A model generated the notes under the pieces. That model ran no database searches. It was not told the DNA's origin and saw only the letters and a list, made by a program, of their open reading frames with translations. Of a stretch of DNA of 64,000 bases, positions 128 through 63,723 are shown one piece after another; the first letter of the stretch is position 1; the number at the start of each line of letters is the position of its first letter. The position numbers and the translations under genes were made by a program. The stretch is from an uncultured Clostridia bacterium (lineage in GTDB: Bacteria; CAYTYR01; UBA6262): contig CAYTYR010000009.1 of NCBI GenBank assembly GCA_964441745.1, forward strand, positions 1 through 64,000, read 5' to 3'.

Positions 128-210
128 CAGTTTTAAGTTTCCCCCAGCTGATTTGTCCTAAGGGACAAATCAAAGATGCGGGGACAGGTAAGTTTTGAAA
201 ACTAAAAATT
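128..210. repeat. AGTTTTA heptamer array interrupted by a 48-nt hairpin element
   Basis: Removing 141-188 gives cagttttaagttttaagttttg. The insert has the stem TGATTTGTCC-taag-GGACAAATCA (149-172) and ends in CAGG. Confidence 0.7.
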
Positions 211-231
211 GTTTTTCAAGAGGAGAAGGAA

Positions 232-1218
232 TTGGATTATCGTAAAGCAGGAGTGAACATCGACGCGGGTGAAAGACTGGTGGAAATGATCAAGCCATTA
301 GCTAGAGCCACAAGAAGGCCTGAGGTTATAGCTGATATCGGCGGGTTCAGCGCTTTATTTGACGGGTCGTTCAAAAATTACAAACACCCGGCGCTGGTTT
401 CTTCAACTGACGGAGTTGGCACTAAACTAAAACTGGCTTTTTTATTGAACAAACATAATACCGTAGGCATAGACCTGGTAGCCATGAGCGTCAATGATAT
501 TATCACCTGCGGCGCGGAACCGCTGTTCTTCCTGGATTATTTTGCCTGTGGTAAATTAGAACCGAAAATTGCTGCCAAGGTTATCGGCGGAATCACGGCC
601 GGATGTCAGCAGGCGCACTGCGCCTTGATTGGCGGGGAAACAGCTGAAATGCCGGGATTTTATCCCGCCGGTGAATATGATCTTGCCGGTTTTGTAGTCG
701 GAGTAGTTGATAAAAGCAAAATTATCGATGGCTCTAAAATAAAGCCGGGTGATATTGTTATGGGCCTGCCCTCCAGTGGACCGCATTCCAATGGCTATTC
801 CCTGATCAGAAAAGTATTCAATAATGCCGAATTAAAGAAATATCAGAAAGAGTTATTTGCACCTACGAAAATATATGTCCGTGAAGTTCTGAACGCTGTA
901 CGCTGTTTACCGAACGCTGTTAAAGGCATTGCCCATATAACTGGTGGCGGCGTCCTGGACAACATACCCCGTATTTTGCCAGATAATTGTCAGGTGACCA
1001 TTCGGGAAGGAAGCTGGAAGATACCTTCAATATTTATGACCATGCAGGAAAAAGGTAAGATCCCGTTTAAGGAAATGTACCGTACCTTTAATATGGGACT
1101 GGGGTTGGTCCTGATCGTTGCCAAACAAGATGTTTCCCGCCTCAAGACATTGCTAAAAGGCTCAGTCATCATTGGGCAGGTTGCTAAAGGCAATAAAGAA
1201 GAGGTAAGAATAATTTGA
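232..1218 (+). CDS. purM: phosphoribosylformylglycinamidine cyclo-ligase (AIR synthetase)
   Basis: DYRKAGVNI, TDGVGTK, GGETAEMPG, HSNGYSL and HITGGG motifs; TTG start after GGAG. Confidence 0.97.
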   Translation: MDYRKAGVNIDAGERLVEMIKPLARATRRPEVIADIGGFSALFDGSFKNYKHPALVSSTDGVGTKLKLAFLLNKHNTVGIDLVAMSVNDIITCGAEPLFFLDYFACGKLEPKIAAKVIGGITAGCQQAHCALIGGETAEMPGFYPAGEYDLAGFVVGVVDKSKIIDGSKIKPGDIVMGLPSSGPHSNGYSLIRKVFNNAELKKYQKELFAPTKIYVREVLNAVRCLPNAVKGIAHITGGGVLDNIPRILPDNCQVTIREGSWKIPSIFMTMQEKGKIPFKEMYRTFNMGLGLVLIVAKQDVSRLKTLLKGSVIIGQVAKGNKEEVRII

Positions 1219-1847
1219 AAAACATGCCTTTAAAAATAGGAGTGCTGGTTTCCGGAGGCGGCAGTAATTTGCAGGCTATCATAGATGCTGTCCGCCGGAA
1301 AAAAGTAAAAGCTGAGATCAGCATTGTTATTAGTAATAAAGCTGACGCCTACGCGCTGACCCGGGCGGGTAAGTACAAGATACCAACTTTATATATTGAT
1401 CCTAATAATTATCCTGACCGGGAAGCATATACCCGCGCTATTACCGATGAGCTAAAACAAAGAGGAGTAGGATTAGTATGCCTGGCCGGATTTATGAGCA
1501 TACTTACTCCGTATTTTGTCAAGAATTTCGCTTTACAGGCGATGAATATTCATCCTGCTTTACTGCCAGCTTTCGGCGGAGCAGGCATGTATGGCCATCA
1601 TGTTCATGAAGCAGTATTGAAATCAGGGGCAAAGTATTCTGGCTGCACCGTACATTTTGTAGACGAAGGGTGCGACACCGGACCGGTCATCGTTCAAGAG
1701 GTCGTTCCAGTAAAAGATGATGATACAGCTGATACCCTCGCCAAGCGTATCTTAAATATTGAGCATAAATTATATCCGCTGGCAATTAAGTATTTTGCTG
1801 AAGGCAAACTGCACGTAGTCGGCAAAAGAGTTTGGTTAAATAAATAA
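1215..1847 (+). CDS. purN: phosphoribosylglycinamide formyltransferase
   Basis: SGGGSNLQA, LAGFM, NIHPALLP and GCTVHFVDEGCDTGP motifs. Confidence 0.97.
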   Translation: MKNMPLKIGVLVSGGGSNLQAIIDAVRRKKVKAEISIVISNKADAYALTRAGKYKIPTLYIDPNNYPDREAYTRAITDELKQRGVGLVCLAGFMSILTPYFVKNFALQAMNIHPALLPAFGGAGMYGHHVHEAVLKSGAKYSGCTVHFVDEGCDTGPVIVQEVVPVKDDDTADTLAKRILNIEHKLYPLAIKYFAEGKLHVVGKRVWLNK

Positions 1848-3373
1848 TGAAATACTCACTGACTAAAAAACTAATTGTGACCTTATTGTTTCTGGCGCTG
1901 ATACCATTGATCATGGTTTCTTTTATTGCGATAGCTGATTTAAATAAGGTTTTTAAATTATTCAGTTTAAATACGGAAGCGGTCCAGCAAAATAATTATC
2001 AGGAATCAAAAAGAATTATCGAAGGGCTGGCTCAGCAGAATGTTAAGGAAATATCAGCTCATGTCGCCCAGGAAATTGAGCTTTATCTGGCGGCACACCC
2101 AAAGTTAAGTATGGCCGATTTGCAGCAACAAAAGAATTTTGAAAGAATCGCCTTGCAAAAAATAGGTGAAAACGGTTATACTGCTATATATGAGATACTT
2201 GGCGGCATCAACCGCTTTCATCCAAATGCAAAAATGGAAAATAAAAGTTATCTTGAGTTAAGCCAGGAGCTTCCGGAATTTGGAAACCTGATCCGGGAAC
2301 ATGTATCTGCTGGAGGAAAAGAGCTAGGCGGTTTTTATAGCTGGCGCGGGCAAAACGGCGAGATTAGAAAGAAATATATGTACTTGCGCGCAATTAATCT
2401 AAAAACAGCAGATCAGGTACAGCTTGGAGTAGCTGCCACTGCTTATGTAGATGAATATTCCATTATTATGACGGCCATAAATGCTCGGACCCAGAAAGTT
2501 TTACAGCAAACTCAAAAAGATTCACGAAAGATAATTAGTTCTATTTACCAACGCAATATTATAATTCTGTTGTCTCTGATCGTTGTCTTGGCCCTGGTTA
2601 TTTTGCTCTTTATCAAGCAATCCATCAAGCCGATCCGGCAGCTGATCGAAGAAATGAACAGTTTTTCCAGCGGTAATAAAGATATCGTTGTTAACATCAG
2701 CGCGCAGGATGAAATAGGACAGCTGGCCAGATCCTTTGCTGTCATGACCAATAAATTACTGGTTGAAGAATCAAAAACAAAAGAAGTTTATCTGGGCATG
2801 ATCGCTACTTTGGCCAAGGCCCTGGAAACAAAAGATGCTTATACTTCCGGACATACGGAAAGGGTTACTGAATACGCGGTTAAAATCGCCGAGTATATGG
2901 GGCTGAAATCAGAAGAAATTGAAGTGATCCACAAAGCATCGCTGATCCATGACATCGGCAAGATTGGTATCAAGTCGGAGATCCTGAATAAAAAGGAAAC
3001 CCTGAACGAAGAGGATTGGAAAGTGATCAAGACGCATCCGATCATGGGTATAAATATCCTGAGCCCGATGAAGATCCTGGGAAACATCTTGCCAATAATC
3101 AGATATCACCATGAGCGCTTTGACGGGACCGGATATCCCGAGGGATTATCCAGCGAAGAAATCCCGCTGGGAGCGAGGATTCTTTCCGTAGCTGATAGCT
3201 ATGATGCCATGACTAGCGACAGGCCATATCATGAAAGATTTCCTATCGGCATGGCGATCGCTGAGATCGAGAGAAATTCAGGCGCTCAATTTGATCCGGA
3301 CGTTGTCTCAGCCTTATTGGCTGTATTGAAAGAAGAAGAAGAAGAAGAAGAAGAAAATAAAAGAAAAGCTTGA
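1847..3373 (+). CDS. membrane sensor with Cache-like extracytoplasmic domain, HAMP and HD-GYP phosphodiesterase domain
   Basis: Two TM segments, HAMP (DEIGQLARSF), HTERV...HDIGKIG...HHERFDGTGYP; TAATG overlap with purN. Confidence 0.9.
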   Translation: MKYSLTKKLIVTLLFLALIPLIMVSFIAIADLNKVFKLFSLNTEAVQQNNYQESKRIIEGLAQQNVKEISAHVAQEIELYLAAHPKLSMADLQQQKNFERIALQKIGENGYTAIYEILGGINRFHPNAKMENKSYLELSQELPEFGNLIREHVSAGGKELGGFYSWRGQNGEIRKKYMYLRAINLKTADQVQLGVAATAYVDEYSIIMTAINARTQKVLQQTQKDSRKIISSIYQRNIIILLSLIVVLALVILLFIKQSIKPIRQLIEEMNSFSSGNKDIVVNISAQDEIGQLARSFAVMTNKLLVEESKTKEVYLGMIATLAKALETKDAYTSGHTERVTEYAVKIAEYMGLKSEEIEVIHKASLIHDIGKIGIKSEILNKKETLNEEDWKVIKTHPIMGINILSPMKILGNILPIIRYHHERFDGTGYPEGLSSEEIPLGARILSVADSYDAMTSDRPYHERFPIGMAIAEIERNSGAQFDPDVVSALLAVLKEEEEEEEENKRKA

Positions 3374-5701: not shown

Positions 5702-5737
5702 TCCGCCTTTAAGCTTGGCGGATCCGCCTCTGGCGGA
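5702..5737. repeat. tandem GC-rich palindromes TCCGCC-N9-GGCGGA and TCCGCC-TCT-GGCGGA
   Basis: Read directly; related copies at 63687-63701 and 27800-27814. Confidence 0.75.
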
Positions 5738-44813: not shown

Positions 44814-44815
44814 AA

Positions 44816-48694: not shown

Positions 48695-48703
48695 AAGCAA
48701 AAA

Positions 48704-48790
48704 CAGTTATAAGTTTTGAGTTATAAATTTTAAGTTTAGGTAAAAGTATTTCACTATAATTCAAAACTCAAAATTCAAAATTTAAAACTA
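48704..48790. repeat. inverted heptamer arrays (AGTTWTR / AAAAYTC)
   Basis: agttata agttttg agttata aatttta ... aaaactc aaaattc aaaattt aaaact. Confidence 0.75.
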
Positions 48791-48807
48791 TCTCAACTGG
48801 GGGGTTA

Positions 48808-50133
48808 ATGATTCTTTCAAAACCATTTAAGACGTTTGTATTAGACACCAATGTTCTGATTCATGATCCAGAAGCGCTTTCCGTATTCGGTCACAACAAA
48901 ATATCGATCCCTTTGATCGTAATCGAAGAGTTGGACCGTTTTAAAACTTTCCACGACGAGCGCGGGCGTAATTCCCGCATTATATCCCGCTACCTGGATA
49001 AACTCCGCAAAAAAGGCAAATTAAACGAGGGCATCGAGCTGGACAATGGCGGCGTTCTCAAGATAGAGCTTGATAGCAAGATCGAACTACCGTTTGAATT
49101 CCGCAATCACAACGATGACAACCAGATACTGATGACCGCACTGGCTCTCCAAAGCAAAGGAGAAGATGTCTATTTTATTTCTAAGGACATCAACCTGCGC
49201 ATCAAAGCAGAAGCTATCGGCTTAAAGGTCCAGGATTATGAACGCTCCAAGGTAAAAATAGACGAGTTATACACTGGCTGTAAGGAAATAGCAGTAAACA
49301 GCGAACAGATCGATTCCTTTTACAAAGATAAAAAACTTAAGCTGTCTGATGATGAGCTTTTTGCCAACCAATTCACTATCCTGAAATCCAATGACGAGAA
49401 AAGCCAGTCTGCGCTTGGCAAGTATATTAAATCCACCAAAGAAATAATTCCCCTCCGCAAAGATACCCGTATCTGGGACTTGAAACCACTTAATACTGAG
49501 CAGCGTTTTGCTATCGACTTGCTGATGGATGATAATATCAAACTGGTGACCTTAGTAGGCGTAGCCGGTACTGGCAAGACTTTACTGGCCTTGGCTGCTG
49601 CCCTGCAAAAAACCGTAGAAGAAAAACTTTACCGGCGCTTCTTTGTCTTGCGCCCGATCATGCCCATGGGCCGGGATATAGGATTCCTGCCTGGGACCAA
49701 GGAAGAAAAACTGACTCAGTGGATGGGTGCCATCTATGACAACCTGGAATTCCTGATGGAAAAGGGCACAGACAAAGTCGGCGAAGAAGATACAGAATCT
49801 AAGATCCAGTATCTTACCGAAACAGGTAAAATGGAAATCGAGGCCCTCACGTATATCCGCGGCCGCAGCCTGCCGAACCAGTTCATCATCATTGATGATT
49901 CGCAAAATTTGACCCCGTCGGAAGTGAAAACAATTATCAGCCGGGCTGGCCAGGGCACAAAATTGGTCTTTACCGGTGATCCCTACCAGATCGACAATCC
50001 CTATCTCGATGCCTCATCAAATGGGTTGACGTACATCGTGGAAAAGCTTAAAGGGCAGGAAATATACGGTCATATAAATTTTACTAAAACTGAAAGGAGC
50101 CCGCTGGCGGCATTGGCGGCCCAACTGCTTTAA
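48808..50133 (+). CDS. PIN-PhoH protein (PhoH2/YlaK-like)
   Basis: VLDTNVL, EELD and SKDINLR (PIN); GVAGTGKT, YIRGRS and GDPYQIDNPYL (PhoH). Confidence 0.93.
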   Translation: MILSKPFKTFVLDTNVLIHDPEALSVFGHNKISIPLIVIEELDRFKTFHDERGRNSRIISRYLDKLRKKGKLNEGIELDNGGVLKIELDSKIELPFEFRNHNDDNQILMTALALQSKGEDVYFISKDINLRIKAEAIGLKVQDYERSKVKIDELYTGCKEIAVNSEQIDSFYKDKKLKLSDDELFANQFTILKSNDEKSQSALGKYIKSTKEIIPLRKDTRIWDLKPLNTEQRFAIDLLMDDNIKLVTLVGVAGTGKTLLALAAALQKTVEEKLYRRFFVLRPIMPMGRDIGFLPGTKEEKLTQWMGAIYDNLEFLMEKGTDKVGEEDTESKIQYLTETGKMEIEALTYIRGRSLPNQFIIIDDSQNLTPSEVKTIISRAGQGTKLVFTGDPYQIDNPYLDASSNGLTYIVEKLKGQEIYGHINFTKTERSPLAALAAQLL

Positions 50134-50972
50134 TGAAGTATATCGATTTGCATGTCCATTCCAACTTTAGCGACGGGACCCTTACCCCGCAGAGAATAGT
50201 GGAATATGCCGCTAAAAGAAAGTTAGCGGCTATAGCGTTGACTGACCACGATACTACAGACGGCGTTCCTATTGCCCAGGAGCATTCAAAGCAATTTGGT
50301 CTGGAAGTAATAGCGGGTGTAGAATTAAGCGTGGAGATGCCCAACCGCAGTGATCTGGAGCTGCATATCCTGGGCTATTACCTGGATTACCAAGATACTG
50401 CTTTCCAGGAACGGTTGAGTTTTTTCCGTAAAAAACGCCATGAACGGGCGGTAATGATGCTGGAAAAACTCCGGGACTTGAATGTCTTCCTGGACGGGAC
50501 CAAACTCCTGGAAACAACCAATGACAATGCTATCGGCCGTCTGCACTTTGCCCAGGCTCTCCTGGAAGAAGGATATGTCCATAATATCCAGGAAGCTTTC
50601 CAGCGCTATATCGGCTTTAACAAACCAGCCTATGTACCCAAGGCCAGGCTGATGCCGGAGCAGGCCATCAAAATGATCAATGATGTAGATGGCATAGCGG
50701 TCCTGGCGCATCCTTATTTTTCTGAGATCAACCGGGAGATGATCGCCTTGCTCGTCGGGTTTGGATTGAAAGGGATTGAGGTATATCACAGCCGGCACAG
50801 CAAATCTGACATCGACCGGTTCCGGCAATATGCCAGCGAATTCAATTTACTGATCACCGGCGGCAGTGATTGTCATGGGGAAATAGACAAGAATGAAGCG
50901 ATTATGGGCAATATGGATGTTCCCTTTGAATTACTGGAGAAAATGCAGGAATATAAAAAAGGCCTTTTATGA
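50133..50972 (+). CDS. PHP-domain phosphoesterase (TrpH/RNase AM-like)
   Basis: DLHVHS, LTDHD, GVELS, LAHP and TGGSDCHG motifs. Confidence 0.92.
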   Translation: MKYIDLHVHSNFSDGTLTPQRIVEYAAKRKLAAIALTDHDTTDGVPIAQEHSKQFGLEVIAGVELSVEMPNRSDLELHILGYYLDYQDTAFQERLSFFRKKRHERAVMMLEKLRDLNVFLDGTKLLETTNDNAIGRLHFAQALLEEGYVHNIQEAFQRYIGFNKPAYVPKARLMPEQAIKMINDVDGIAVLAHPYFSEINREMIALLVGFGLKGIEVYHSRHSKSDIDRFRQYASEFNLLITGGSDCHGEIDKNEAIMGNMDVPFELLEKMQEYKKGLL

Positions 50973-50991
50973 TCAAAATTGGGAGGCGGTC

Positions 50992-51372
50992 ATGTTTAAA
51001 TGGCTCAAAACGGCAAAATCAAGAAGATTAAAAAAATACAAAGAAAAAAGGACCTCCCCCCGTTTAAACACACTGGTCGATGTAGTCTATAAATTATATG
51101 ATAAAAAGGGAAACGGCATCGTTTCCTTAGCCAAAGACGTCAGTGCCTCCGGGATGAGGCTGCTGCACCAGAAAAAAGTGCAACTGGACACTTTGATGGA
51201 TATTAAGATCGACCTGCCCCAGCAAGAAGGACTGGTTTCTGCTTTGGGCAAGGTAGTTTGGTACAAGCGCAAAGGCGGTATCGGTATCAAATTCCTGATG
51301 ATCAAACCCAATGATGAGCAAAAACATCTGGATTACCTGGGAAAAAAACTGACTGATCCAAAAAACTCTTAA
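50992..51372 (+). CDS. PilZ-domain protein
   Basis: RTSPR (RxxxR) and DVSASG (DxSxxG); ATG after GGAGG. Confidence 0.85.
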   Translation: MFKWLKTAKSRRLKKYKEKRTSPRLNTLVDVVYKLYDKKGNGIVSLAKDVSASGMRLLHQKKVQLDTLMDIKIDLPQQEGLVSALGKVVWYKRKGGIGIKFLMIKPNDEQKHLDYLGKKLTDPKNS

Positions 51373-51383
51373 TAGAGGGGATT

Positions 51384-52178
51384 ATGATCTCTGCCAAAAA
51401 ATTCTGGTATCTATCTGGAGCGTTAATAATATTTAATATATTTTCGTTTTGGTTCATCCCGGAGGGGAAGATATTAACGGTTATTAGTGACCTGCTACCG
51501 ATACTCTGTGCCGTGATCGCTGTCCTGGGTATGGCTTTTGCCGTGCATAGTTTTAAATTATTTGACCAGACGAAGCTAGCCTGGATGTTATTATTAGCCG
51601 GAATGGTTTTATTTTCTGCCGCGGAAACCACCTATGCTGTACTGGAACTTTTATTACAGGTAGATGTAAATGAGGTTTTCCCAACTATAGCTGATTATTT
51701 CTGGATGGCAGGATACCTGCCTTTGATCGCCGGCTTATTATTACTGCTCTATGAATATAAAAAAAGCGGCCTGGCCTTTGGCCAGCCATGGAAGTACTTC
51801 TTTGGCTTTGCGCTGATCATTGTTTTAATTATCAAGCTCTCCTCTGTGCTTTTTATACCCATACTGCGAGATAGCGAGTTAAGCTGGCTGGCTAAACTGG
51901 CGTATCTTTATTATCCTCTTGGCGATATTTTCCTGATTTTGCCGGCAGCAATATTAGCCTACATCACCAGCCTTTTCGATAAGGGCCATATTTCCCGCCC
52001 CTGGCAGTTTATGACGCTAGGGTTTCTGGCAATGATCATCGCTGATATTTTATATTCTTTTTTTAGCTGGAACAATAACTACGGACCGGGTAATTTTATT
52101 GACGTTCTTTTCAACCTTGGTTATTTGCTGATCGGTTTAAGCGGTTTATATCAAAAACAATTAATAGAGTCGGTTTAG
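51384..52178 (+). CDS. polytopic membrane protein resembling a stand-alone sensor input domain
   Basis: About eight TM segments; FPTIADYFW...GY and LYYPLGD motifs as in N-terminal sensor modules of kinases and cyclases. Confidence 0.65.
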   Translation: MISAKKFWYLSGALIIFNIFSFWFIPEGKILTVISDLLPILCAVIAVLGMAFAVHSFKLFDQTKLAWMLLLAGMVLFSAAETTYAVLELLLQVDVNEVFPTIADYFWMAGYLPLIAGLLLLLYEYKKSGLAFGQPWKYFFGFALIIVLIIKLSSVLFIPILRDSELSWLAKLAYLYYPLGDIFLILPAAILAYITSLFDKGHISRPWQFMTLGFLAMIIADILYSFFSWNNNYGPGNFIDVLFNLGYLLIGLSGLYQKQLIESV

Positions 52179-52180
52179 CT

Positions 52181-52414
52181 ATGGTAGAAAATAAACTAGT
52201 AAAAAGAATTGAAATAGTGCTCACGCCATTACTGGGGACGCTCATGGCCTCAATTACCGTGAAAATGCAATGCGAAAAGATCGGAGTCACTCCGGAAACA
52301 TTATCTATACCGGACTTGCCGAAGCTTGGCAATGCCATTGAAAAAGCCCTGATAGTTTTTGTCGGTTCTTCTAAAGCCAAGGATGTAGCTAGCAGCATAA
52401 AAACGATTTTATAG
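52181..52414 (+). CDS. small hypothetical protein
   Basis: 77-aa ORF starting 2 nt after the upstream stop. Confidence 0.65.
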   Translation: MVENKLVKRIEIVLTPLLGTLMASITVKMQCEKIGVTPETLSIPDLPKLGNAIEKALIVFVGSSKAKDVASSIKTIL

Positions 52415-52419
52415 AAAAA

Positions 52420-52541
52420 AGTACTTCCATACAGGAGAAACCTGTGTAAATCAGGTACTGCCCCGCAACGGTGATACCCCAATTATATTGGGGTCAGTCC
52501 GATCGCCTGCATGAGTATAAGTTATAACCTTCGAGGGAAGG
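52420..52541 (+). ncRNA. cobalamin riboswitch (compact type)
   Basis: AGGAGAAACCTGTGTAAATCAGGTACTGCCCCGCAACGGTGA...AGTCCGATCGCCTGC and hairpin CCTTCGAGGGAAGG, directly upstream of btuFCDB. Confidence 0.85.
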
Positions 52542-52617
52542 GCAGGTCAAACCATAAACCTGGTAGACTCAACTTCCTATTTGCTTTAGCCTAGTTGGGT
52601 TTATTTTATTAAGGAGC

Positions 52618-52653
52618 GATTACACAGATTATGAAAAGAGATTACACAGATTT
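52618..52653. repeat. family C repeat GATTACACAGATT x2 straddling the btuF start codon
   Basis: Copies at 52618-52630 and 52640-52652. Confidence 0.8.
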
Positions 52654-53494
52654 CAAACGTAGAATATTTTTAGTAGTACTAGCGGGAATATTATTTTGCT
52701 TTAGCCTGGCGCAAGCAGGAGAGATACTGCCGCAGCGGATTATTTCCCTGGCTCCGGCTAATACCGAGATCCTGTACGCCCTTAATCTCGGAGACAAAGT
52801 AGTGGGTGTTTCTTCGTACTGCAATTATCCTCCGCAATGCGCAAAGAAGGAAAAAGTAGGGGATTTTTCCAATCCGAATATTGAAAAGATCGTAGCTTTA
52901 AAGCCAGATCTGATCCTGGCTACCGGACTGGAGCAGAATCCAGCCGTAGTTAAATTAAAAAAACTGGGCTTGACAGTGCAGGTGATCGATCCGCAGAATT
53001 TTAACCAGCTTTTTGATTCTATTACCAGGATTGGTGAGTTGACGGGAACAGGGTCAATTGCCTTTGTCCTGAACCAATCCATTAAAGCGCGTATTACCAA
53101 GTTGATGCAGGCGATAACAGCCAGGATCACCTCGCCGCCGAAAATATTTATTGAGATCTCTGTGCAGCCGCTCATGACCGCTGCCAATAATACCTTTTTA
53201 GGTGAAATGATCAATATGTTGAGAGCCATAAATGCGGCTGGGGACTTGCCTCGTCCTTACTGTCGGATCAGCGAAGAATTTGTCATTCATCAAGATCCTG
53301 ATTATATTGTTTTAACCGGTCCGCATAGCCGGAATTATTTTGTCTCAAATAAAGCCTGGAACAAGACCAAAGCAGTACGGCAAAACCATTTAATTGATGC
53401 TATTAATCCAGACTTGCTGCTGCGGCCCGGGCCGCGGCTGATCGATGGGCTGGAACAGCTGGCAGAAAAAATATATCAAATAAAGACGCGGTAA
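52631..53494 (+). CDS. btuF: cobalamin ABC transporter substrate-binding protein
   Basis: RIISLAPANTEIL, EKIVALKPDL and RPGPRL motifs; riboswitch upstream. Confidence 0.88.
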   Translation: MKRDYTDFKRRIFLVVLAGILFCFSLAQAGEILPQRIISLAPANTEILYALNLGDKVVGVSSYCNYPPQCAKKEKVGDFSNPNIEKIVALKPDLILATGLEQNPAVVKLKKLGLTVQVIDPQNFNQLFDSITRIGELTGTGSIAFVLNQSIKARITKLMQAITARITSPPKIFIEISVQPLMTAANNTFLGEMINMLRAINAAGDLPRPYCRISEEFVIHQDPDYIVLTGPHSRNYFVSNKAWNKTKAVRQNHLIDAINPDLLLRPGPRLIDGLEQLAEKIYQIKTR

Positions 53495-53495
53495 A

Positions 53496-54476
53496 ATGAA
53501 AAAGAATCAACTCCTAACGATTATATTGCTGTTTATAGGTTTGCTGCTCTTGGGCTATGTTTCCTTGTATTGGGGTGCGATCAAGATCGATCCGTTTCAA
53601 CCCCAGGATGAAGTTGGCCGCTTGATCATGTTCAGGCTGCGCCTGCCCAGGATCTTCCTGGCTATTATTGCCGGTTTCGGACTAAGCATTAGCGGAGTTG
53701 TTTTCCAAGCCCTGCTGCGCAATCCTCTGGCCGATCCTTATATTCTTGGCACATCGTCAGGAGCAGCCCTGGGCGGGGTACTGGCTATTGCGCTGGGCCT
53801 GGGTGCATCGATCTATAATATTTCTTTCAGCGCTTTCGTTTTTGCCCTGTTAACTCTATTCATCGTCTACCAATTAGCGCAGCAGAATGGGAAAATGCCG
53901 GTACAAAACCTGCTCCTGGCCGGAGTAATAGTAAATACTTTCCTCTCAGGGGTGGTCACGCTCATTATGTCCCTGAACCGCCAGGAATTATACAGTATTA
54001 TGTTCTGGATCATGGGCAGCCTCAGCCAGGCTGATAATAAAGCAATCTGGCTAGGCGGATTAACCGTTTTATTATTATCCGGCATGGTTACCTTAATGAG
54101 CCGTTATCTTAATATTATTACGTTAGGTGAAGAAAAAGCCCAATCCCTGGGCGTCCCTGTTGAATTAATGCGTAAAATTCTCTTTGTGATCGTTTCCCTG
54201 ATCATTGCCATACTGGTATCCATCTGCGGTATGATCGGTTTTGTCGGATTGATCATTCCTCATATCAGCCGGTTATTGGTCGGTCCGGATCATAAAGTCC
54301 TTTTGCCGGTTTCTGGCCTGCTCGGCGCCATCTTCCTGCTGCTCTGCGACATCCTGGCCAGGACCATAGCCATTCCCTTGGAAATCCCCATAGGAGTGAT
54401 CACCGCACTGGCCGGAGCGCCGTTCTTTTTATATTTACTCCGTCGGAAAAGAACTAATTTATTATTTGAGGAATAG
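53496..54476 (+). CDS. btuC: cobalamin ABC transporter permease (FecCD family)
   Basis: RLPR, RNPLADP, GFVGLIIPH and EIPIG motifs. Confidence 0.88.
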   Translation: MKKNQLLTIILLFIGLLLLGYVSLYWGAIKIDPFQPQDEVGRLIMFRLRLPRIFLAIIAGFGLSISGVVFQALLRNPLADPYILGTSSGAALGGVLAIALGLGASIYNISFSAFVFALLTLFIVYQLAQQNGKMPVQNLLLAGVIVNTFLSGVVTLIMSLNRQELYSIMFWIMGSLSQADNKAIWLGGLTVLLLSGMVTLMSRYLNIITLGEEKAQSLGVPVELMRKILFVIVSLIIAILVSICGMIGFVGLIIPHISRLLVGPDHKVLLPVSGLLGAIFLLLCDILARTIAIPLEIPIGVITALAGAPFFLYLLRRKRTNLLFEE

Positions 54477-54480
54477 GCCA

Positions 54481-55272
54481 ATGGGTTACCTGGATATATC
54501 CAAAATACGATTTGCGTATCGCGAGGAAATGATCCTGAAAGATATTTCTTTCAGTGTACAGCCAGGTGATTTTTTAGGAATTATCGGTCCCAATGGCAGC
54601 GGCAAATCAACTTTACTGAAGATCCTGGCCCGGCTGTTGACGGCCAAAGAAGGGAGCGTCTCGTTAAGCGGTCTCGACCTAAAACAATATCCGGTGCGCA
54701 CATTAGCTAAAAAAATAGCCTTGGTACCTGAAGAGACTTCCCTTAACTTTCCTTTTACAGTAGAAGAATTGGTGCTGATGGGCCGGTCACCGCATCTTTC
54801 TTTTTTACAACCACTGACCAATAAGGATCATCTCCAGGCCAACGAATGCATGGGAAAAACCTCGATCAGGGCTCTGGCCAGCCGCCTGGTCAATGAATTA
54901 TCCAATGGCGAACGTCAAAGAGTGTTTATCGCCCAAGCCTTGGCCCAGGAACCAGATATTTTATTACTGGATGAACCGACTGCGCATTTAGATATCAATC
55001 ACCAGATCGAGATATTCAATGTTTTAAAGAACCTGCAAGAACAGCACGGGTTAACCATCATTACCGTAACTCATGACCTTAACCTGGCCGCGCTCTATTG
55101 TAATACGCTGCTTTTATTAAAAAAAGGAGAAATCTTCAATCAAGGCACTCCCGCGCAAGTGATCACTGCGGAAAATATAAAGAAGGTGTACCAGGCCAGG
55201 GTAGCGGTACATCAGAATCAGGAGATCAATAAACTGCAAATTACCCTTATCCCTAACAACAAGGAGGACTAA
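54481..55272 (+). CDS. btuD: cobalamin ABC transporter ATPase
   Basis: GPNGSGKST, LSNGERQR, DEPTAHLD and HDLNLA motifs. Confidence 0.88.
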   Translation: MGYLDISKIRFAYREEMILKDISFSVQPGDFLGIIGPNGSGKSTLLKILARLLTAKEGSVSLSGLDLKQYPVRTLAKKIALVPEETSLNFPFTVEELVLMGRSPHLSFLQPLTNKDHLQANECMGKTSIRALASRLVNELSNGERQRVFIAQALAQEPDILLLDEPTAHLDINHQIEIFNVLKNLQEQHGLTIITVTHDLNLAALYCNTLLLLKKGEIFNQGTPAQVITAENIKKVYQARVAVHQNQEINKLQITLIPNNKED

Positions 55273-57212
55273 TGTTCAGGCAAAAAGCTATCATTATGGT
55301 AATGCTGGCACTATTGTTGGCGGCGAATATTGTAGCTGCTGAAGAAGGGGCTGAAGTTAATCTAAACATGACCGTGATTTCAGCCAGCCTGTCACCTCAG
55401 CCTGCGCGGCTCACCGGCGCTAATATCACCGTGATTAAGGCCGAGGATATTGCCGCGGCCCATACCCAGGATATCAGCCAGTTACTGAACCAGGCAGCCG
55501 GATTGGACCTGCCAAAGCAAGCCAGTTTGGGTAATGCCCAGATCTTATCCATCCGGGGAGTTCCTGGACAGCAGGTTCTGGTACTATTGGATGGTTTTCC
55601 TTTAAATTCTCCGTCACTGGGATTACCAGACTTATCCCAAATACCCCTGGAAAATATAGAGCGTATAGAGATCGTGCGCGGCGCCGGATCAGCGGTATAT
55701 GGCGCTAATGCCATCGGCGGCGTGGTCAACATTATCACTAAAAAGATTAAAGATCCGAAACCACTGACTGACATTAGTATTCTAGCCGGCAGCCATAATA
55801 CCCAGACCTACCGGTTCAGTTTTGGCGCTAAACCAGGGGATCTTGATTACTTAATTTCTGCCAGCCGTTCCTTTGCCAAGGGCTGGAGAATGAATAACGA
55901 TTTTGCTAATAATGCTTTTAGCTGGCAATTAGGGTATGACTGGCATCGCTATGGCACGATCAGCCTGCATAATCAATATTACCGGAGTTTTTTAGCACTG
56001 CCTGGTCCCTCGAATGTGCCCATTGAGAACTGGGACAATGCGTTGGAAAGGGAGGCCTCTTCACCTAATGCCCGTCAGGAAGACCGCGCTAATATTACCT
56101 ACGCAGAATATAAAGTAATTCTGGCTGATCAAACTGCGGCTAAAGTACGCACCTTTCTTAATGACACAAAACAAATCTACCGTAACACTGACTGGTCCAT
56201 AGACAACTTGCGGCGCAACCGGTCGCATGGAGCCAGTATGCAGTTTGACCTGGTTTCCGGCTGGAGCGCGGGTATAGAATACCGCCAGGATTCAGTATGG
56301 CAAAGAGATGGCAATATCCAGGCCGACACGATCAATGAGTCAGTTTTTTATCAATCCCTATATGGACAGTATCTGCGGCAACTGGGCGCCTGGATATATA
56401 CTGTTGGCGCGCGTTATGACCATCATTCCATCAGCGGCGGCCAGTTTAATCCAAGATTAAACCTGGTGTGCCTGTTAAATAGCGCCTGGAAAGCTTCATT
56501 GAATATTGCCCGCGGCTTCCGTCCACCGACTGTAAATGACCTGTTTTGGCCGCTCAACCAGGAGTCATATTTTGGCCTGACTTATATCACTGTCGGCAAT
56601 AAAAACCTGTCTGCTGAAAAAGCTATGTCCTATGATCTTGGCTTGGAAGGAAAGTTCACTGAGTCCTGCCAAGGAAAAGCTACACTGTTCTATATTGCCA
56701 GTAAGGATTTAATGCTCTGGGAACAAGAAAATGTTACTTTAACTTCGTATCGTTACTCACCGCAGAATATAGCTCAGGGTAAAAATATCGGGTTAGAAGT
56801 GGAAGCCAGCCAGGATCTGTTCCGCGTTCTGAAGCATAAACTGGTCTATACCGCCATGCAGGCACAAGGGAAAAAGGATAGTGACCAGGATTATCTTTTA
56901 CTGGCTTTCCACCCCAAACACAAGCTGTCCTACCAGCTGGACTATACGCCAAAGGAAACAGTGCAAATATCTATTCGCAACCAATTCCAGGCAGCCAGCT
57001 TTGAGCAGGTCGGTGAAAGAGGACTAAAAATCCCTTCCGCCAGTATCTGGAGCGCAGCCCTGCAAAAGAAAATAAATTCTGCTGTCTTTACTTTTAAAGC
57101 GGATAATATCCTGGATAAACGCTATGCCGTGCGGACAGACGGGTTTGGTAATTATTATCCCTTGCCCGGCAGGACCTATTGGTTCAGCTGCGACCTGCCC
57201 TTTGTAAACTAA
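55272..57212 (+). CDS. btuB: TonB-dependent receptor, probably for cobalamin
   Basis: Plug motif IERIEIVRGAGSAVYGANAIGGVVNIITK; NILDKRY...PGR near the C-terminus. Confidence 0.82.
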   Translation: MFRQKAIIMVMLALLLAANIVAAEEGAEVNLNMTVISASLSPQPARLTGANITVIKAEDIAAAHTQDISQLLNQAAGLDLPKQASLGNAQILSIRGVPGQQVLVLLDGFPLNSPSLGLPDLSQIPLENIERIEIVRGAGSAVYGANAIGGVVNIITKKIKDPKPLTDISILAGSHNTQTYRFSFGAKPGDLDYLISASRSFAKGWRMNNDFANNAFSWQLGYDWHRYGTISLHNQYYRSFLALPGPSNVPIENWDNALEREASSPNARQEDRANITYAEYKVILADQTAAKVRTFLNDTKQIYRNTDWSIDNLRRNRSHGASMQFDLVSGWSAGIEYRQDSVWQRDGNIQADTINESVFYQSLYGQYLRQLGAWIYTVGARYDHHSISGGQFNPRLNLVCLLNSAWKASLNIARGFRPPTVNDLFWPLNQESYFGLTYITVGNKNLSAEKAMSYDLGLEGKFTESCQGKATLFYIASKDLMLWEQENVTLTSYRYSPQNIAQGKNIGLEVEASQDLFRVLKHKLVYTAMQAQGKKDSDQDYLLLAFHPKHKLSYQLDYTPKETVQISIRNQFQAASFEQVGERGLKIPSASIWSAALQKKINSAVFTFKADNILDKRYAVRTDGFGNYYPLPGRTYWFSCDLPFVN

Positions 57213-57217
57213 ACTTA

Positions 57218-57331
57218 GATTACACAGATTTTAAAAGATGATTACCCGCCAAAGAGCGCCGGCGGGCGCGGCACAGATTTTATACATTTAGTTTTTAATC
57301 GGTGTAATCTCTCTTAATAATCGGTGTAATC
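57218..57331. repeat. family C inverted pair with a 27-nt hairpin insert
   Basis: gattacacagattt; gatta[57245-57271]cacagattt; then aatcggtgtaatc x2. Confidence 0.8.
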
Positions 57332-57332
57332 A

Positions 57333-57360
57333 GAGATTGTTTATTATTATAAACAATCTC
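57333..57360. other. 12-bp perfect inverted repeat (terminator or operator)
   Basis: GAGATTGTTTAT-tatt-ATAAACAATCTC. Confidence 0.55.
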
Positions 57361-57371
57361 AAGAAAAAGGC

Positions 57372-57400
57372 TTGCACAATTATTCAAATATTGTTAAAAT
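57372..57400 (+). promoter_or_regulatory. sigma70 promoter with extended -10
   Basis: TTGCAC-17bp-TAAAAT preceded by TGn, 7 nt before ATG 57408. Confidence 0.6.
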
Positions 57401-57407
57401 TATTTTT

Positions 57408-58517
57408 ATGAATAAAAAGCTGGTTACGCCATATTATTTAATTGACGAACGCAAACTAATGAAGAACCTGGAAATTATCAAATACGTCAGGGAAACTTCT
57501 GGCGCCAAATCAGTATTAGCGCTTAAATGTTTTTCCACCTGGGGCGTTTTCCCGCTCCTGAAAAAATACCTGGACGGGACCACCAGCAGCTCGCTTTATG
57601 AAGCCAGACTGGGTTTTGAAAAGTTCGGCCGGGAAGTACATGCTTATTGCGTGGGTTATTCCCGCAGCGATATAGCGGAAGTCAAGCGCTATGCCGATAA
57701 AATTATTTTTAATTCTTTGTCACAACTGAAAACATATTACCGGGAAGTAAAAAGCCTGAAGATCGGTGTCCGGGTAAATCCCCAGTTCAGTTATTCTCAT
57801 TTTGACCTGGCTGATCCGGCCCGCCGTTATTCCCGGCTTGGGGTCACTGACCTTAAAAATCTTTTTAACGCGGCTCCCAGGCTCAGCGGGGTGATGTTCC
57901 ACTTTAACTGTGAAAATGATGATTTCCGCAATTTTTCTGCTAATCTCGATTTGATCGGGAAAAAATACGCCAAGCTTTTACACCGCTTGGAATGGGTCAG
58001 TTTAGGCGGAGGGCTCTATTTCACCAAAGATGGATACCCCTTAAATAATTTTTGCCAAAAGCTTAAAGAATTCAGCGACTGCTACAATGTGCAGGTTTAC
58101 CTTGAACCAGGAGAAACAGTCATCACCAGGTCAGCTGAACTGGTGACCACAGTAGTGGATGTTGTTCATAATGGAAAAGATACCGTTATCGTCGATGCTT
58201 CTACCGAAGCGCATATGCTGGACCTGCTGATCTACCGCACGCCGGCGAAGATCGACTCTGCCGGCTCTGGCCGGTTTAGCTATATTGTTGCGGGACGTTC
58301 TTGTTTAGCCGGGGATATTTTTGGCACATACCGCTTCCAGCACAGGTTAAAACCAGGCAGCATTATCCGGATCAGCGACGCGGCAGGATACACCATGGTC
58401 AAGAAAAACTGGTTCAATGGACTGCAGATGCCTTCAATAGTAGTCAAGAGACTGAATGGCCAGCTGGACAAGGTACGTAGTTTTACCTATCAGGATTTTA
58501 TTAATAGCTTGTCGTAA
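57408..58517 (+). CDS. nspC: carboxynorspermidine/carboxyspermidine decarboxylase
   Basis: TPYYLIDE, LALKCFS, SLGGG, YLEPGE, SCLAGD and YTMVKKNWFNG motifs. Confidence 0.93.
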   Translation: MNKKLVTPYYLIDERKLMKNLEIIKYVRETSGAKSVLALKCFSTWGVFPLLKKYLDGTTSSSLYEARLGFEKFGREVHAYCVGYSRSDIAEVKRYADKIIFNSLSQLKTYYREVKSLKIGVRVNPQFSYSHFDLADPARRYSRLGVTDLKNLFNAAPRLSGVMFHFNCENDDFRNFSANLDLIGKKYAKLLHRLEWVSLGGGLYFTKDGYPLNNFCQKLKEFSDCYNVQVYLEPGETVITRSAELVTTVVDVVHNGKDTVIVDASTEAHMLDLLIYRTPAKIDSAGSGRFSYIVAGRSCLAGDIFGTYRFQHRLKPGSIIRISDAAGYTMVKKNWFNGLQMPSIVVKRLNGQLDKVRSFTYQDFINSLS

Positions 58518-58554
58518 CGGATCACACAAACATCGCTTGGGAGAGGACAGGGTA

Positions 58555-59787
58555 ATGAAAAAAAAGAAAAACGTGCTGATCATCGGGGCCGGAGGAGTAG
58601 CCCACGTAGTCGCGCACAAATGTGCCCAGAACAATGATATCCTGGGTGATATTTGCCTGGCTTCCAGGACCCAGCGCAAAGCTGACAAGATCATCGACAG
58701 CATTAAAAAGAAAAATAATCTTAAAGATAAAACCAAGCAGCTGTATAGCCGACAGATAGACGCGATGGATATACCCGCTATGGTCAACCTGATCAAAGAA
58801 ACTAACTCCCAGATCGTCATTAACGTGGGAATAACTTTTATTAATATGTCCGTGCTGGAAGCCTGTATCCAGGCGGGTGTTGTGTATATGGACACAGCCA
58901 TTCATGAAGAACCCGGTAAAGTATGTGAAGACCCACCTTGGTATGCCAACCACGAATGGAAGCTGAAGGACCGCTGCCGGGAGAATGGTATTACTGCTAT
59001 TCTTGGTATAGGATTTGATCCAGGGGTAGTAAACGCCTATTGCGCTTACGCGGTGAAGCATCTCTTCGACACCATCGATATTATTGACATCCTGGATGTG
59101 AATGCCGGCAATCACGGCAAATATTTTGCCACTAATTTCGACCCGGAAATAAATTTCCGGGAATTCAAGAAAGTCTGGACCTGGATCGACCGGAAATGGG
59201 TAGAGAAGAAAGTCCATACTAAAAAGATGGTGTATGAGTTCCCGATTGTCGGCAAGCAAACCGTTTACCTGACCGGGCATGATGAATTACATTCTTTGTC
59301 GCAGAATATCGACGCCAACACGATCAGGTTCTGGATGGGCTTCAGTGACCATTACATCAATGTTTTCACGGTCCTGAGCAAGTTAGGATTATTATCAGAG
59401 AAAACCGTCAAAACAGCGGAAGGCGTCGAAGTTGTGCCGCTCAAAGTGGTCAAAACTGTCCTGCCTGATCCCGGCTCATTAGCGCCCAACTATACGGGAA
59501 AAACCTGCATCGGGAACCTGATCAAAGGCACTAAGAGCGATGTGCCTAAAGAAGTATTTATTTATAACATTTGCGATCATGCTGAATGCTATAAGGAAGT
59601 GGAATCACAAGCGATCAGTTATACTGCCGGAGTGCCGCCGGTAGCCGCAGCCATCCTGGTAGCCAAGGGCACCTGGGATGTCAAAACCATGGTCAATGTT
59701 GAAGAATTGGATCCTGATCCGTTCATTGAACTGCTGGACAAAATGGGACTGCCAACAGAGATCCAGGAAACACCCGCGGCTGTGTAA
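58555..59787 (+). CDS. carboxynorspermidine/carboxyspermidine dehydrogenase (saccharopine dehydrogenase family)
   Basis: IIGAGGVA, GFDPGV, FATNFDPEIN and QAISYTAGVP motifs; adjacent to nspC. Confidence 0.92.
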   Translation: MKKKKNVLIIGAGGVAHVVAHKCAQNNDILGDICLASRTQRKADKIIDSIKKKNNLKDKTKQLYSRQIDAMDIPAMVNLIKETNSQIVINVGITFINMSVLEACIQAGVVYMDTAIHEEPGKVCEDPPWYANHEWKLKDRCRENGITAILGIGFDPGVVNAYCAYAVKHLFDTIDIIDILDVNAGNHGKYFATNFDPEINFREFKKVWTWIDRKWVEKKVHTKKMVYEFPIVGKQTVYLTGHDELHSLSQNIDANTIRFWMGFSDHYINVFTVLSKLGLLSEKTVKTAEGVEVVPLKVVKTVLPDPGSLAPNYTGKTCIGNLIKGTKSDVPKEVFIYNICDHAECYKEVESQAISYTAGVPPVAAAILVAKGTWDVKTMVNVEELDPDPFIELLDKMGLPTEIQETPAAV

Positions 59788-63352: not shown

Positions 63353-63393
63353 TTCTTGACTTTAAGTTAAATTATTCCTATAATTAGTTTAAT

Positions 63394-63630
63394 ATGTTTA
63401 TGCCTAAATTATTACCGCAAGACGAAAAACAAATCGACCAAAAATTCCGCCTGGTGGCAATGCAGGAACAGCAGGACGAGGAGAAACGGATAGTTAAGGA
63501 TTACTCGTTCGTCCTGGGCCTGATCATGCTGATCATCGGATTATTGATCTATACCATGAGTATTATTTTTGGCGGAGCGATGATGGCTATGGGATTGGCA
63601 GCCATAATCTATCGTTTCTTACCATGGTAG
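63394..63630 (+). CDS. small two-TM hypothetical protein
   Basis: ORF 9 nt after TTGACT-17bp-TATAAT (63356-63384). Confidence 0.6.
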   Translation: MFMPKLLPQDEKQIDQKFRLVAMQEQQDEEKRIVKDYSFVLGLIMLIIGLLIYTMSIIFGGAMMAMGLAAIIYRFLPW

Positions 63631-63637
63631 TTAGAAC

Positions 63638-63723
63638 GATTAACCAGATTACTTAATTGTATTTGCTCTAATCGGTGTAATCCCTGTCCGCCTCTGGAGG
63701 AGCATTCAGAAATCGGTGTAATC
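63638..63723. repeat. family C repeats with CCTG-TCCGCCTCTGGAGGA hairpin insert
   Basis: aatcggtgtaatc at 63670-63682 and 63711-63723; insert at 63683-63701. Confidence 0.7.

Follow-up and report, generated by a model that had tools for sequence, protein, structure and literature searches.

Ultra-short palindromic insertion modules, probably mobile and SDR-like, in the genome of an uncultured aquatic bacterium

The first 64 kb of contig CAYTYR010000009.1 (C9; assembly GCA_964441745.1), from an uncultured aquatic bacterium, contain short hairpins which split repeats and genes; this whole stretch of 64,000 nucleotides is called the window in what follows. The hairpins form part of a genome-wide set of ultra-short palindromic insertion modules, 15-50 bases long, foldable as DNA hairpins and falling into at least five families. 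In all likelihood they are mobile DNA modules resembling the small dispersed repeats (SDRs) of cyanobacteria. Alignment of sister species supports the claim of a previous sequence-only reading of the window that the modules are small and non-coding and that they insert without duplicating their target; they also vary from one relative to another. The nine hairpin sites which that reading had listed all read as described when the sequence was inspected (Table 1).

The source genome amounts to 2.07 Mb in 39 contigs (45% G+C, 98% complete), and its phylum comprises nine known species without close kin elsewhere, the host being, by kinship, apparently not cyanobacterial. All the long open reading frames (ORFs) of the window lie on the plus strand, and the intergenic spaces are packed with short repeats, namely heptamer arrays, often with inverted arms, and a 13-base unit, the 13-mer (GATTACACNGATT; general form GATTACAC(A/C)GATT). 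A search with Rfam at gathering thresholds across the window gave a tRNA at 48498-48568 as the sole match, the hairpins matching no family. Sites were compared with five congeneric, syntenic genomes (77-85% DNA identity) and one genome of the same family (72%), and pattern counts covered the nine genomes of the phylum, the class-level set being identical.

Module families and their common right end

The whole genome was scanned on both strands for perfect stems of at least 6 bases, with at least 5 G/C and loops of 3-14 bases, which yielded 894 GC-rich hairpins. Directly 3' of them, no tetranucleotide is as common as CAGG, with 69 cases against 11.1 expected from tetranucleotide frequencies. 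In Markov genomes, hairpin plus CAGG was found 1-4 times (order 1, n = 10) or 6-14 times (order 3, n = 10), and the enrichment of foot plus hairpin over simulated genomes (69 against 1-14), named beforehand as a check, was therefore obtained. Plain counts of the word CAGG were dropped as evidence, since it is too common to be informative.

Six kinds of hairpin are referred to below as F1 to F6. F4 (CCCGCC-N8-13-GGCGGG) occupies 54 sites, with the tail C[AG]C[AG]G in 24 and CAGG in 13. Of the former, 21 of the 24 stand exactly at GATTA^CACAGATT of the 13-mer, the caret marking the point of insertion. The tail is CGC[AG]G in 18 of these 21 copies inside the 13-mer, while copies in heptamer arrays carry CAGG; F4-CAGG is hosted by heptamer arrays of the GTCAGCG type or by GGTGA^CAGTGA, a motif that recurs upstream of tRNA genes. 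Within called ORFs, 7 of 9 F4 copies are 27 bases long. F2 (TCCGCC-NNN-GGCGGA; 38 sites, 17 with CAGG) is typically found in the order 13-mer, spacer, F2-CAGG, 13-mer, and additionally as tail-less doublets. F3 has 21 sites, 16 of them with the full CAGG end; when complete, it is a perfect palindrome of 20 bases, CCTGCCTGCCGGCAGGCAGG, which lies, among other places in the genome, at GATTACACA^GATT. F6 (CCCCGAT..ATCGGGG) has five sites, three with CAGG, again abutting GATT. F1 and F5 are nested hairpins of 40-50 bases starting with CCTGT, with 17 credible copies in the genome; at least eight different inner helices occur in these copies, all fully paired, so that the fold is kept by compensatory changes.

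Many of the modules are alike in the layout of their right end. A tail beginning with C stands directly 3' of the palindrome in 37/54 F4, 17/38 F2, 16/21 F3-like and 3/5 F6 sites, and the consensus right end of many modules is GGC(A/G)G(G/A)CAGG, a G-rich arm followed by C-AGG; the 10-mer GGC[AG]G[AG]CAGG occurs 80 times in the genome against 7 for the reversed pattern. Wherever CAGG directly precedes a 13-mer (13 cases), it forms the tail of F2 or F3, and the tail therefore belongs to the hairpin and not to the host. The CCTG/CAGG foot described earlier is thus present, although as the end of a right-end motif of about 10 bases rather than as a free tetranucleotide, and at 57245 and 47094 the tails are not CAGG but CGCGG and CAAG. 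Hairpin orientation has no clear bias with respect to gene direction (7 sense and 8 antisense for F2; 10 and 5 for F4 in the 13-mer), and a conserved 5' target tetranucleotide was not found, the bases 5' of the element being variable (AATC, GCTG, GGGA, CTTG, TTTA).

The sites of the window illustrate these settings. The F1 module at 141-188 splits an AGTTTTA heptamer tract between the end of one gene and the next gene (232), and both this module and the F5 module at 40041-40082 take the central position in palindromes with heptamer-repeat arms. The doublet at 5702-5737, which recurs at five more loci in the genome, stands just behind a stop codon, with a heptamer tract after it. The hairpin at 24797 has its two other copies in a repeat tract of the GATAG type and in the tRNA cluster of contig C5. 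Composites such as that at 63670, with 13-mer, F2, spacer and 13-mer, exist at at least 12 loci.

Two modules lie in genes. That at 39261-39290 is a 30-base in-frame insert in a macro-domain/Nudix-like gene (38997-39980), whose protein gains 10 residues; it is a single copy in the genome, sharing with the others the architecture of hairpin and foot and not the sequence. That at 47094-47120 is a 27-base in-frame insert in a heptamer-like tract of a CCA-adding-enzyme-like gene (46710-48233), adding the residues PATRTSSGK. The claim that deletion of the element restores the host exactly at 141, 47094 and 57245 holds, since excision yields AGTTTTA AGTTTTA AGTTTTG, a 7-base periodic tract and GATTACACAGATT, respectively.

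Occupied and empty sites in relatives

Eight of the nine sites could be compared with relatives; the place orthologous to 27800-27814 was not alignable and was left out of the turnover counts. Seven of the eight are empty in every relative aligned, without target duplication, and the eighth is empty in three of four (Table 1). The clean empty-site alleles by which the insertion claim was to be judged do therefore exist in relatives, and the absence of target duplication is confirmed, as excision restores the host exactly and the gaps in relatives are clean. At some loci another hairpin, or another arrangement, is found instead: where the window has the split 13-mer at 57245, G001 shows four 13-mers without a hairpin, the F4 of G004 lies in a different 13-mer and in the opposite orientation, and G003 has a heptamer-armed element with an F5 hairpin. 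Moreover, G003 holds a hairpin-bearing copy of the 39981-type element at a different locus.

At the level of the phylum (nine species), F2 with its tail is found 17, 10, 4, 4, 1 and 1 times per genome in the genus and 0 times outside it, and F4 with CAGG from 13 down to 2 times in the genus and 1, 1 and 0 times outside, the reversed-pattern control giving 0-1 in each genome. Contigs of DNA runs were also inspected over 38900-58800. Those of runs X1 (possibly the source) and X2 are identical across both in-gene insertions, and the listed assembly joints all lie in 13-mers and are repeat artefacts. The piece of an X4 contig that corresponds to 47026-48242 has 27 gap letters, which equals the length of the 47094 module; the position of the gap is not shown, so it was not counted.

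Table 1. Hairpin modules and host repeats of the window, with the state of each site in related genomes (G handles)
Feature	Position	Strand	Structure	State in relatives
F1 module	141-188	+	Nested hairpin CCCC..GGGG around GATTTGTCC..GGACAAATC, ends ACAGG; 3' end GGGGACAGG	Absent from the orthologous spacer in 4/4 congeners
F2 doublet without CAGG tail	5702-5737		TCCGCC-tttaagctt-GGCGGA (5702-5722) abutting TCCGCC-tct-GGCGGA (5723-5737)	Present in G003 only; absent from G002, G004, G006
Low-copy tail-less hairpin	24797-24814		GTCCCGAT-aa-ATCGGGAC; 3 genome copies	Absent from 5/5 relatives
F3-like short palindrome	27800-27814		CCTGCC-aga-GGCAGG = CCTGCCAGAGGCAGG; in promoter-like spacer	
In-gene hairpin	39261-39290	-	On minus strand CCCTCC..GGAGGG + CAGG (on plus strand CCTG foot first)	Absent from 3/3 orthologues (G002, G003, G006); clean in-frame 30-base gap
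Palindromic host element of F5 module	39981-40132		Arms of ATCAGG-type heptamers	
F5 module	40041-40082	+	CCTGTACTCCCTGTAT + TGATTTC-gata-GAAATCA + AGGGGGTA; nested hairpin, CCTG first	Absent in 2/2: G003 arms only; G002 without whole element
Degenerate F4 module	47094-47120	+	CCCGCC-actaggacatc-GTCGGG + CAAG	Absent from 4/4 orthologues (G001, G003, G004, G006); clean in-frame 27-base gap
Uninterrupted 13-mer	57218-57230	+	GATTACACAGATT; other-strand copies at 57297-57309 and 57319-57331	
Split 13-mer	57240-57279	+	GATTA^CACAGATT, with F4 inside at 57245-57271: CCCGCC-aaagagcgcc-GGCGGG + CGCGG	57245-57271 absent at that place in 4/4; G002 = GATT-CACAGATT
Composite	63670-63723	+	13-mer 63670-63682, F2 63683-63701 (CCTG foot + TCCGCC-tct-GGAGGA, i.e. 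CCTG + TCCGCCTCTGGAGGA), 9-base spacer, 13-mer 63711-63723	63683-63701 absent in 4/4; G004 with both 13-mers and 9-base spacer, hairpin-free

Lodging sites

The modules lodge in DNA able to fold or slip, namely 13-mers, heptamer arrays, the centres of heptamer-armed palindromes and the loops of broken tRNA copies. The 13-mer has 165 copies in the source genome, and the nine genomes of the phylum contain 165, 187, 123, 107, 78, 22, 25, 1 and 0; the reversed-pattern control gave 0-1 per genome, against 22-187 true copies in the congeners. Excision of the hairpin restores a 13-mer at 21/54 F4 sites, in comparison with 15 of 3000 random non-ORF positions lying in a 13-mer, and 7-base periodic flanks are found at 5/54 F4 sites as against 62/3000 random non-ORF positions. 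The 13-mer is also met with elsewhere: a metagenome-assembled genome (MAG) without detectable DNA similarity to the window (G031, locus L092) has 22 copies of GATTACACNGATT, likewise with a pair spacing of about 21 bases, one of which is split by the 20-base palindrome of F3 at GATTACACA^GAT, the same position as in the source genome.

Spare copies of tRNA genes represent a further type of host. Relatives of F5 separate positions 35 and 36, within the anticodon loop, of tRNA-Ser 5' halves on contig C1, which lie just upstream of intact tRNA-Ser genes; broken tRNA-Arg, -Thr and -Val copies bear a double hairpin in the D-loop; and in two broken tRNA-Cys copies, which have more hairpins after the anticodon, positions 26 and 27 are parted by F4 with a CCTG foot. 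A partial extra copy within 700 bases accompanies 14 of the 42 tRNA genes, at least two of these being neighbouring tRNA genes that cross-match. Hairpins within 500 bases of a tRNA account for 15/54 F4, 7/38 F2, 4/19 F1/F5 and 2/21 F3 sites, compared with 7.1% of non-ORF bases, and the 13-mer is not enriched near tRNA genes (7/165).

A single palindrome across phyla

The full form of F3 reaches far beyond the phylum, as the exact 20-mer CCTGCCTGCCGGCAGGCAGG occurs in at least 120 stretches of named genomes, for a chance count of about 0.5 by our own estimate, as well as in 35 stretches of viral contigs. Its identity across many phyla therefore does not reflect convergence. The matches listed, to which all the statements of this paragraph on loci refer, come from Patescibacteria, Bacteroidota (including cultured strains), Omnitrophota and Planctomycetota, with further records from Gamma- and Deltaproteobacteria, Nitrospirota-type bacteria and Chloroflexi. 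In settings that agree with those of the window, the 20-mer splits heptamers or other short repeats (e.g. L071, L117, L125, L149, L168), sits in tRNA D-arms or anticodon loops at five loci (L082, L104, L152, L166, L173) and is nested in its own copies at four (L085, L088, L095, L109). It lies inside open frames of at least 150 residues at 23 of 125 genome sites and at 28 of 42 viral sites. A junction consensus at these insertions is not visible, and among the 120 loci F4 was found in one and tail-less TCCGCC..GGCGGA hairpins in 16. In other phyla, then, copies of the modules themselves serve as a further lodging site; for the modules in general, in-frame survival inside genes is rare.

The string of the 20-mer was absent from openly searchable papers, subscription journals and supplements lying outside that search, and no description matching miniature in-frame palindromic modules in heptamer or intergenic repeats was found in the searchable literature. 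Two of the loci deserve separate mention. At L152 the tRNA-like sequence seems full length after the 20-mer in its D-loop; if it is the sole gene for that tRNA, the insert would need to be tolerated or removed. At L127, in a Thermodesulfobacteriota MAG, the 20-mer and a GIY-YIG domain are found in frame within a 714-residue open frame, a putative type I restriction specificity subunit.

A candidate partner enzyme

Four proteins of the source genome match PF01541 (GIY-YIG): one large, one of the UPF0213 type and two small and tRNA-linked. The large protein occurs once per genome in 9/9 genomes of the phylum, and the UPF0213-type protein scores 86 bits to BH0048. The two small proteins (80 and 92 residues) match no NCBIfam model, and their only matches among solved structures are to UPF0213 proteins at 30-52 bits, the two scoring 33 and 52 bits against the 86 of the UPF0213-type protein. 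The small GIY-YIG genes stand at tRNA genes among these hairpins in two of three cases in the source genome. The 80-residue gene (C5:35703-35942) has on one side a broken tRNA-Cys copy laden with hairpins and on the other the intact tRNA-Cys gene (C5:35560-36130, L066), and the 92-residue gene (C1:160650-160925, minus strand) adjoins tRNA-Asn and an F3-like palindrome. At L066, moreover, the nuclease gene contains at its 3' end the 3' end of tRNA-Cys in inverted form, and the intact tRNA gene is followed by another broken tRNA-Cys copy.

Over the phylum, all the tRNA-linked small GIY-YIG loci (12/12) adjoin a tRNA and 7/12 have a hairpin within about 1.5 kb, in contrast with 0/7 UPF0213-type and 0/9 large loci (0/16 together). 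A succession of tRNA fragment, palindrome, GIY-YIG ORF and intact tRNA is met again in other phyla (L104, L173, L185), although rarely. The suggested look for GIY-YIG genes beside the hairpins thus gives a faint positive signal, with 7/12 versus 0/16 loci within the phylum and only 6 of 125 listed sites of the 20-mer across phyla. Literature combining GIY-YIG, a tRNA gene and a mobile palindrome was limited to fungal mitochondrial or unrelated work.

The interest of these genes lies in their likeness to the Ssn nucleases (GIY-YIG, cd10448; Chenal et al. 2025), which, according to excerpts of PMC11893778, cut single-stranded DNA beside their own dispersed hairpin repeat, NTS/SRM. SsnA is described there as a single-domain GIY-YIG protein of 94 residues. 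It binds its hairpin in single-stranded DNA and not otherwise, cleaving a few bases upstream, and no base counts for more in this binding than the cytosine that immediately follows the palindrome; at least one repeat lies near the nuclease gene in 71% of Ssn homologues. The same excerpts note an insertion-sequence-like repeat-gene-repeat layout and a likeness to IS200/IS605 and to the repetitive extragenic palindromes (REPs) with their REP-associated tyrosine transposases (RAYTs), hairpin plus adjacent short tag without target duplication being the architecture of REP and IS200/IS605 ends (PMC11893778). The modules studied here share with the Ssn system a dispersed hairpin whose flanks are oriented and non-palindromic, with a C standing next to the palindrome on its 3' side; a single-domain GIY-YIG gene (80-94 residues), with copies of the repeat around it, may be a further point in common. 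They differ in that the nuclease genes belong to tRNA-linked cassettes in which part of a tRNA is duplicated, PMC11893778 not containing the word tRNA; in that only a small minority of palindromes is near such a gene; and in their in-frame insertion into genes and their nesting, which those excerpts do not describe for Ssn repeats.

Mechanism and alternative explanations

The following scheme is the one that we favour. The hairpin would fold on single-stranded DNA, and a small single-domain nuclease of the Ssn type would recognise the folded hairpin plus the C just 3' of it. After a cut beside a hairpin or within some exposed loop, repair would take a hairpin-bearing sequence as its template; between copies of one short repeat this repair would amount to gene conversion, and at new sites it would be end-joining or gap-filling. 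By analogy with the Ssn system, a GIY-YIG nuclease may be the partner of the hairpins, an assignment which is made tentatively. The copy step in the form proposed, a cut followed by repair that copies the hairpin-bearing sequence, is rather doubtful. Taken as a whole, mobile hairpin modules recognised as single strands by an Ssn-type GIY-YIG enzyme and copied by repair are given slightly less than even credence.

Several results weigh against this scheme. Within-population variation at the sites was not seen in the contigs of four DNA runs over 38900-58800. The tRNA-Cys nuclease gene occupies the same place in G000, G003, G004 and G005 and therefore looks inherited rather than recently mobile. 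The tRNA link may be indirect, and tRNA neighbourhoods free of the nuclease are hairpin-rich too (contig C1, about 256-258 kb). RAYT and GIY-YIG gene counts both climb with the repeat load, and co-occurrence therefore does not discriminate between the two enzymes. Among the listed loci of the 20-mer, a GIY-YIG ORF lies within 300 bases at 7/120, a broader GIY-YIG profile finds 6/125 sites versus 3/125 random positions in the same loci, and F4 and F2 with a CAGG tail are each found at 0/120 of these loci. In addition, the hairpins do not match the NTS of Neisseria (CGTCATTCCCGCG..). Finally, we know of no GIY-YIG enzyme that joins DNA, and the paste step is conjectural.

A first alternative dispenses with a dedicated enzyme, the hairpins spreading and vanishing by homologous recombination or gene conversion among dispersed repeats. 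Gain and precise loss are both natural under conversion, which also suits the exact restoration of the host and a tail that varies with it (CGC[AG]G in 18/21 copies in the 13-mer, CAGG in heptamer arrays). Furthermore, F1 flanks are homologous beyond the hairpin, e.g. C10:3043 versus C17:6220, and F2 copies share the entire composite of 13-mer, hairpin, spacer and 13-mer. Nevertheless, the first entry into unrelated hosts is left unexplained, as for the 30-base insert at 39261 in unique coding sequence, and one and the same 20-mer is present across phyla in dozens of kinds of repeat as well as in genes and viral contigs; the 7-13 bases of homology per unit are, besides, very short for RecA-type exchange. 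Gene conversion probably contributes in any case, and as the full explanation it is unlikely.

The mobiliser proposed in the sequence-only reading was a HUH (Y1) nuclease of the RAYT or IS200/IS605 type, which would cut single-stranded DNA at the foot and move REP-like elements in trans. The modules do have the architecture of REP and IS200/IS605 ends, and the genome does encode suitable enzymes, with eight PF01797 matches; of five ORFs scanned, four match NCBIfam NF047646 (REP-associated tyrosine transposase), one above the cut-off. The motif that flanks some of the RAYT genes includes GGGGTCAGG, similar to the end of F1, GGGGACAGG, and RAYT gene number climbs with the 13-mer load over the nine genomes of the phylum (8 genes with 165 copies, 5 with 187, 4 with 123, 4 with 107, 2 with 78, 2 with 22, 1 with 25, 0 with 1 and 0 with 0), a correlation that is weak evidence because these genomes are kin. 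However, the hairpins expected to flank RAYT genes do not: a hairpin of the CAGG families (F4) is within 2.5 kb of only 2/8 genes, and on one side. The RAYT-like genes are bracketed by different repeats of their own, either an inverted GGGGTCAGGCACTGAA motif or a 35-base palindrome (eight copies) with the stem ..TTCCACC / GGTGGAA.., and the three closest paralogues are alike in the coding part only. A strand bias is not evident, and no tetranucleotide is conserved 5' of the element. The proposal was therefore not upheld, and we regard it as improbable. The other marks of IS200/IS605 are lacking as well, as the 5' flanks vary, orientation is unbiased and TnpB (PF07282) was not found in the genome; nor do the modules behave as miniature inverted-repeat transposable elements, the host being restored exactly on excision and target duplication being absent.

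The RAYT-like genes have features of their own. Four of them (L001-L004, at C8:5300-6450, C22:25750-26860, C1:183300 and C1:187180) have a DnaA-domain-IV-like tail, with inverted GGGGTCAGGCACTGAA-type copies on both sides, after which come GACCCCATTGTTTA units, as many as five in tandem; elsewhere in the genome the GGGGTCAGGCACTGAA-type motif stands alone about 15 times. The eight copies of the 35-base palindrome, AACCGTCTTTCCACC-N5-GGTGGAAAGACGGTT, are clustered (C8:48861, 49658, 50923 and 6463; C9:83273; C11:40315, 42321 and 43750). One stands directly after a short RAYT-like gene and another a few hundred bases from it, and the palindrome is therefore probably that gene's own REP.

That the hairpins are immobile, functional motifs (terminators, mRNA stabilisers, binding or processing sites) recurring under selection is highly improbable: they do lie mostly between co-directional genes, the F1/F5 fold is kept via compensatory changes and F4 loops are alike across genera, but their sites are not conserved between sister species, they take both orientations with respect to transcription, they occur in frame in genes, in other repeats and in their own copies, the window has no Rfam match for them and an identical 20-mer in many phyla cannot have converged. 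A spread via an RNA intermediate, reportedly proposed for cyanobacterial SDRs as insertion in RNA loops followed by copying back to DNA, would account for tRNA D-loops and anticodon loops as targets and for the frequency of broken tRNA copies (14/42), but is scarcely credible given both orientations with respect to transcription and the absence of a reverse transcriptase domain (PF00078) from the 98% complete genome.

Relation to known repeat systems

SDR1-8 of the Nostocaceae, reportedly described by Elhai and colleagues in 2008, are said to be dispersed, hairpin-forming repeats of tens of bases, embedded in heptamer tandem repeats, with nested insertions and a fold kept via compensatory changes. 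According to excerpts of PMC4390886 and PMC5861425, SDR5 is inserted between the third and fourth bases of HIP1, and SDR-like repeats were not found outside the Nostocaceae. The present modules agree with SDRs in being small dispersed hairpin repeats with compensatory changes in the fold, in their heptamer hosts, in their presence or absence between relatives and in the fixed position taken within a hyper-abundant motif, HIP1 for SDR5 and the 13-mer for F4 (21 copies at GATTA^CACAGATT). In contrast to SDRs, confined to the Nostocaceae as far as those excerpts go, they occur in a small non-cyanobacterial candidate phylum, with one family in many phyla, and they are distinguished by the C-AGG tail of many copies, by copies in frame in genes, by insertion in broken tRNA copies and by a nuclease candidate. 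The modules are therefore called SDR-like, having been likened by description and not by sequence, and are not filed as members of SDR1-8.

The mobile GC clusters of yeast mitochondrial DNA are likewise GC-rich palindromes of a few tens of bases, placed between and inside genes in AT-rich DNA; they are organellar, belong to other sequence families and make a short target duplication. With the REP, BIME (bacterial interspersed mosaic element) and REPIN-RAYT systems, as presented in excerpts of PMC3116915, the modules have in common short extragenic palindromes, a conserved adjacent tag, many copies, the absence of target duplication and the presence of Y1 genes. They differ in that the Y1 genes are flanked by other repeats and in that the CAGG hairpins are shorter (15-27 bases), occur within genes and other repeats and lack strand bias. 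The palindromic elements of Rickettsia, which insert in frame into unrelated protein genes and so add a peptide, are similar in this respect; according to excerpts of PMC10969869 they are of about 150 bp and found only in Rickettsia, whereas the modules described here measure 27-30 bases in genes and are mostly intergenic.

Implications

If modules of 15-27 bases do move, a lower size limit of mobile DNA is set by them, and their movement would provide a route for the remodelling of short repeats, of tRNA gene copies and of proteins; in the window, two genes carry 9-10 extra residues. SDR-like behaviour is seen here in a candidate phylum unrelated to the Nostocaceae, and one module identical across phyla and viral contigs points to frequent horizontal transfer. 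In practical terms, the modules break assemblies, whose joints lie at 13-mers, and give rise to length differences between orthologous proteins. The parallel with Ssn provides a concrete biochemical lead to the partner enzyme.

A broader view may be put forward tentatively, in which the modules would be a pan-bacterial class of the smallest mobile DNA (15-27 bases): snap-back single strands might enter the exposed loops of other folded DNA, such as tRNA genes, short repeats and the modules themselves, and cross phyla, perhaps via phages, with F4, F1/F5 and the 13-mer landing pad bred within the lineage. The right end, i.e. the G-rich arm plus C-AGG, could in such a case be the handle of the nuclease, an enzyme that has not been tied to mobility in print.

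Additional observations in the window

The CCA-adding-enzyme-like gene contains two heptamer-like tracts (46958-46987 and 47085-47140). At the same two places each congener has tracts of other unit sequences, mutually inverted in G001, and the more distant G006 is without the first tract (27-base gap).

Several tRNA genes are preceded, at a distance of a few hundred bases, by the motif GG(T/A)GA^CAG(T/C)GA(A/G)GGTTGCC, with copies at 48255-48285 of the window and at C1:257640-257690, C2:58595-58650, C5:55020-55080 and C6:68300-68350. The copy of the window is intact, the four others being split at the caret by F4-CAGG, and the window therefore holds a paralogous empty site. Downstream of this copy, the last 25 or so bases of tRNA-Gly(CCC) (48498-48568) and its trailer (GATTCCCATCACCCGCTTTTATAA) are repeated about 120 bases further on (48569-48700), as if a small piece had been inserted at the 3' end of the tRNA, duplicating that end.

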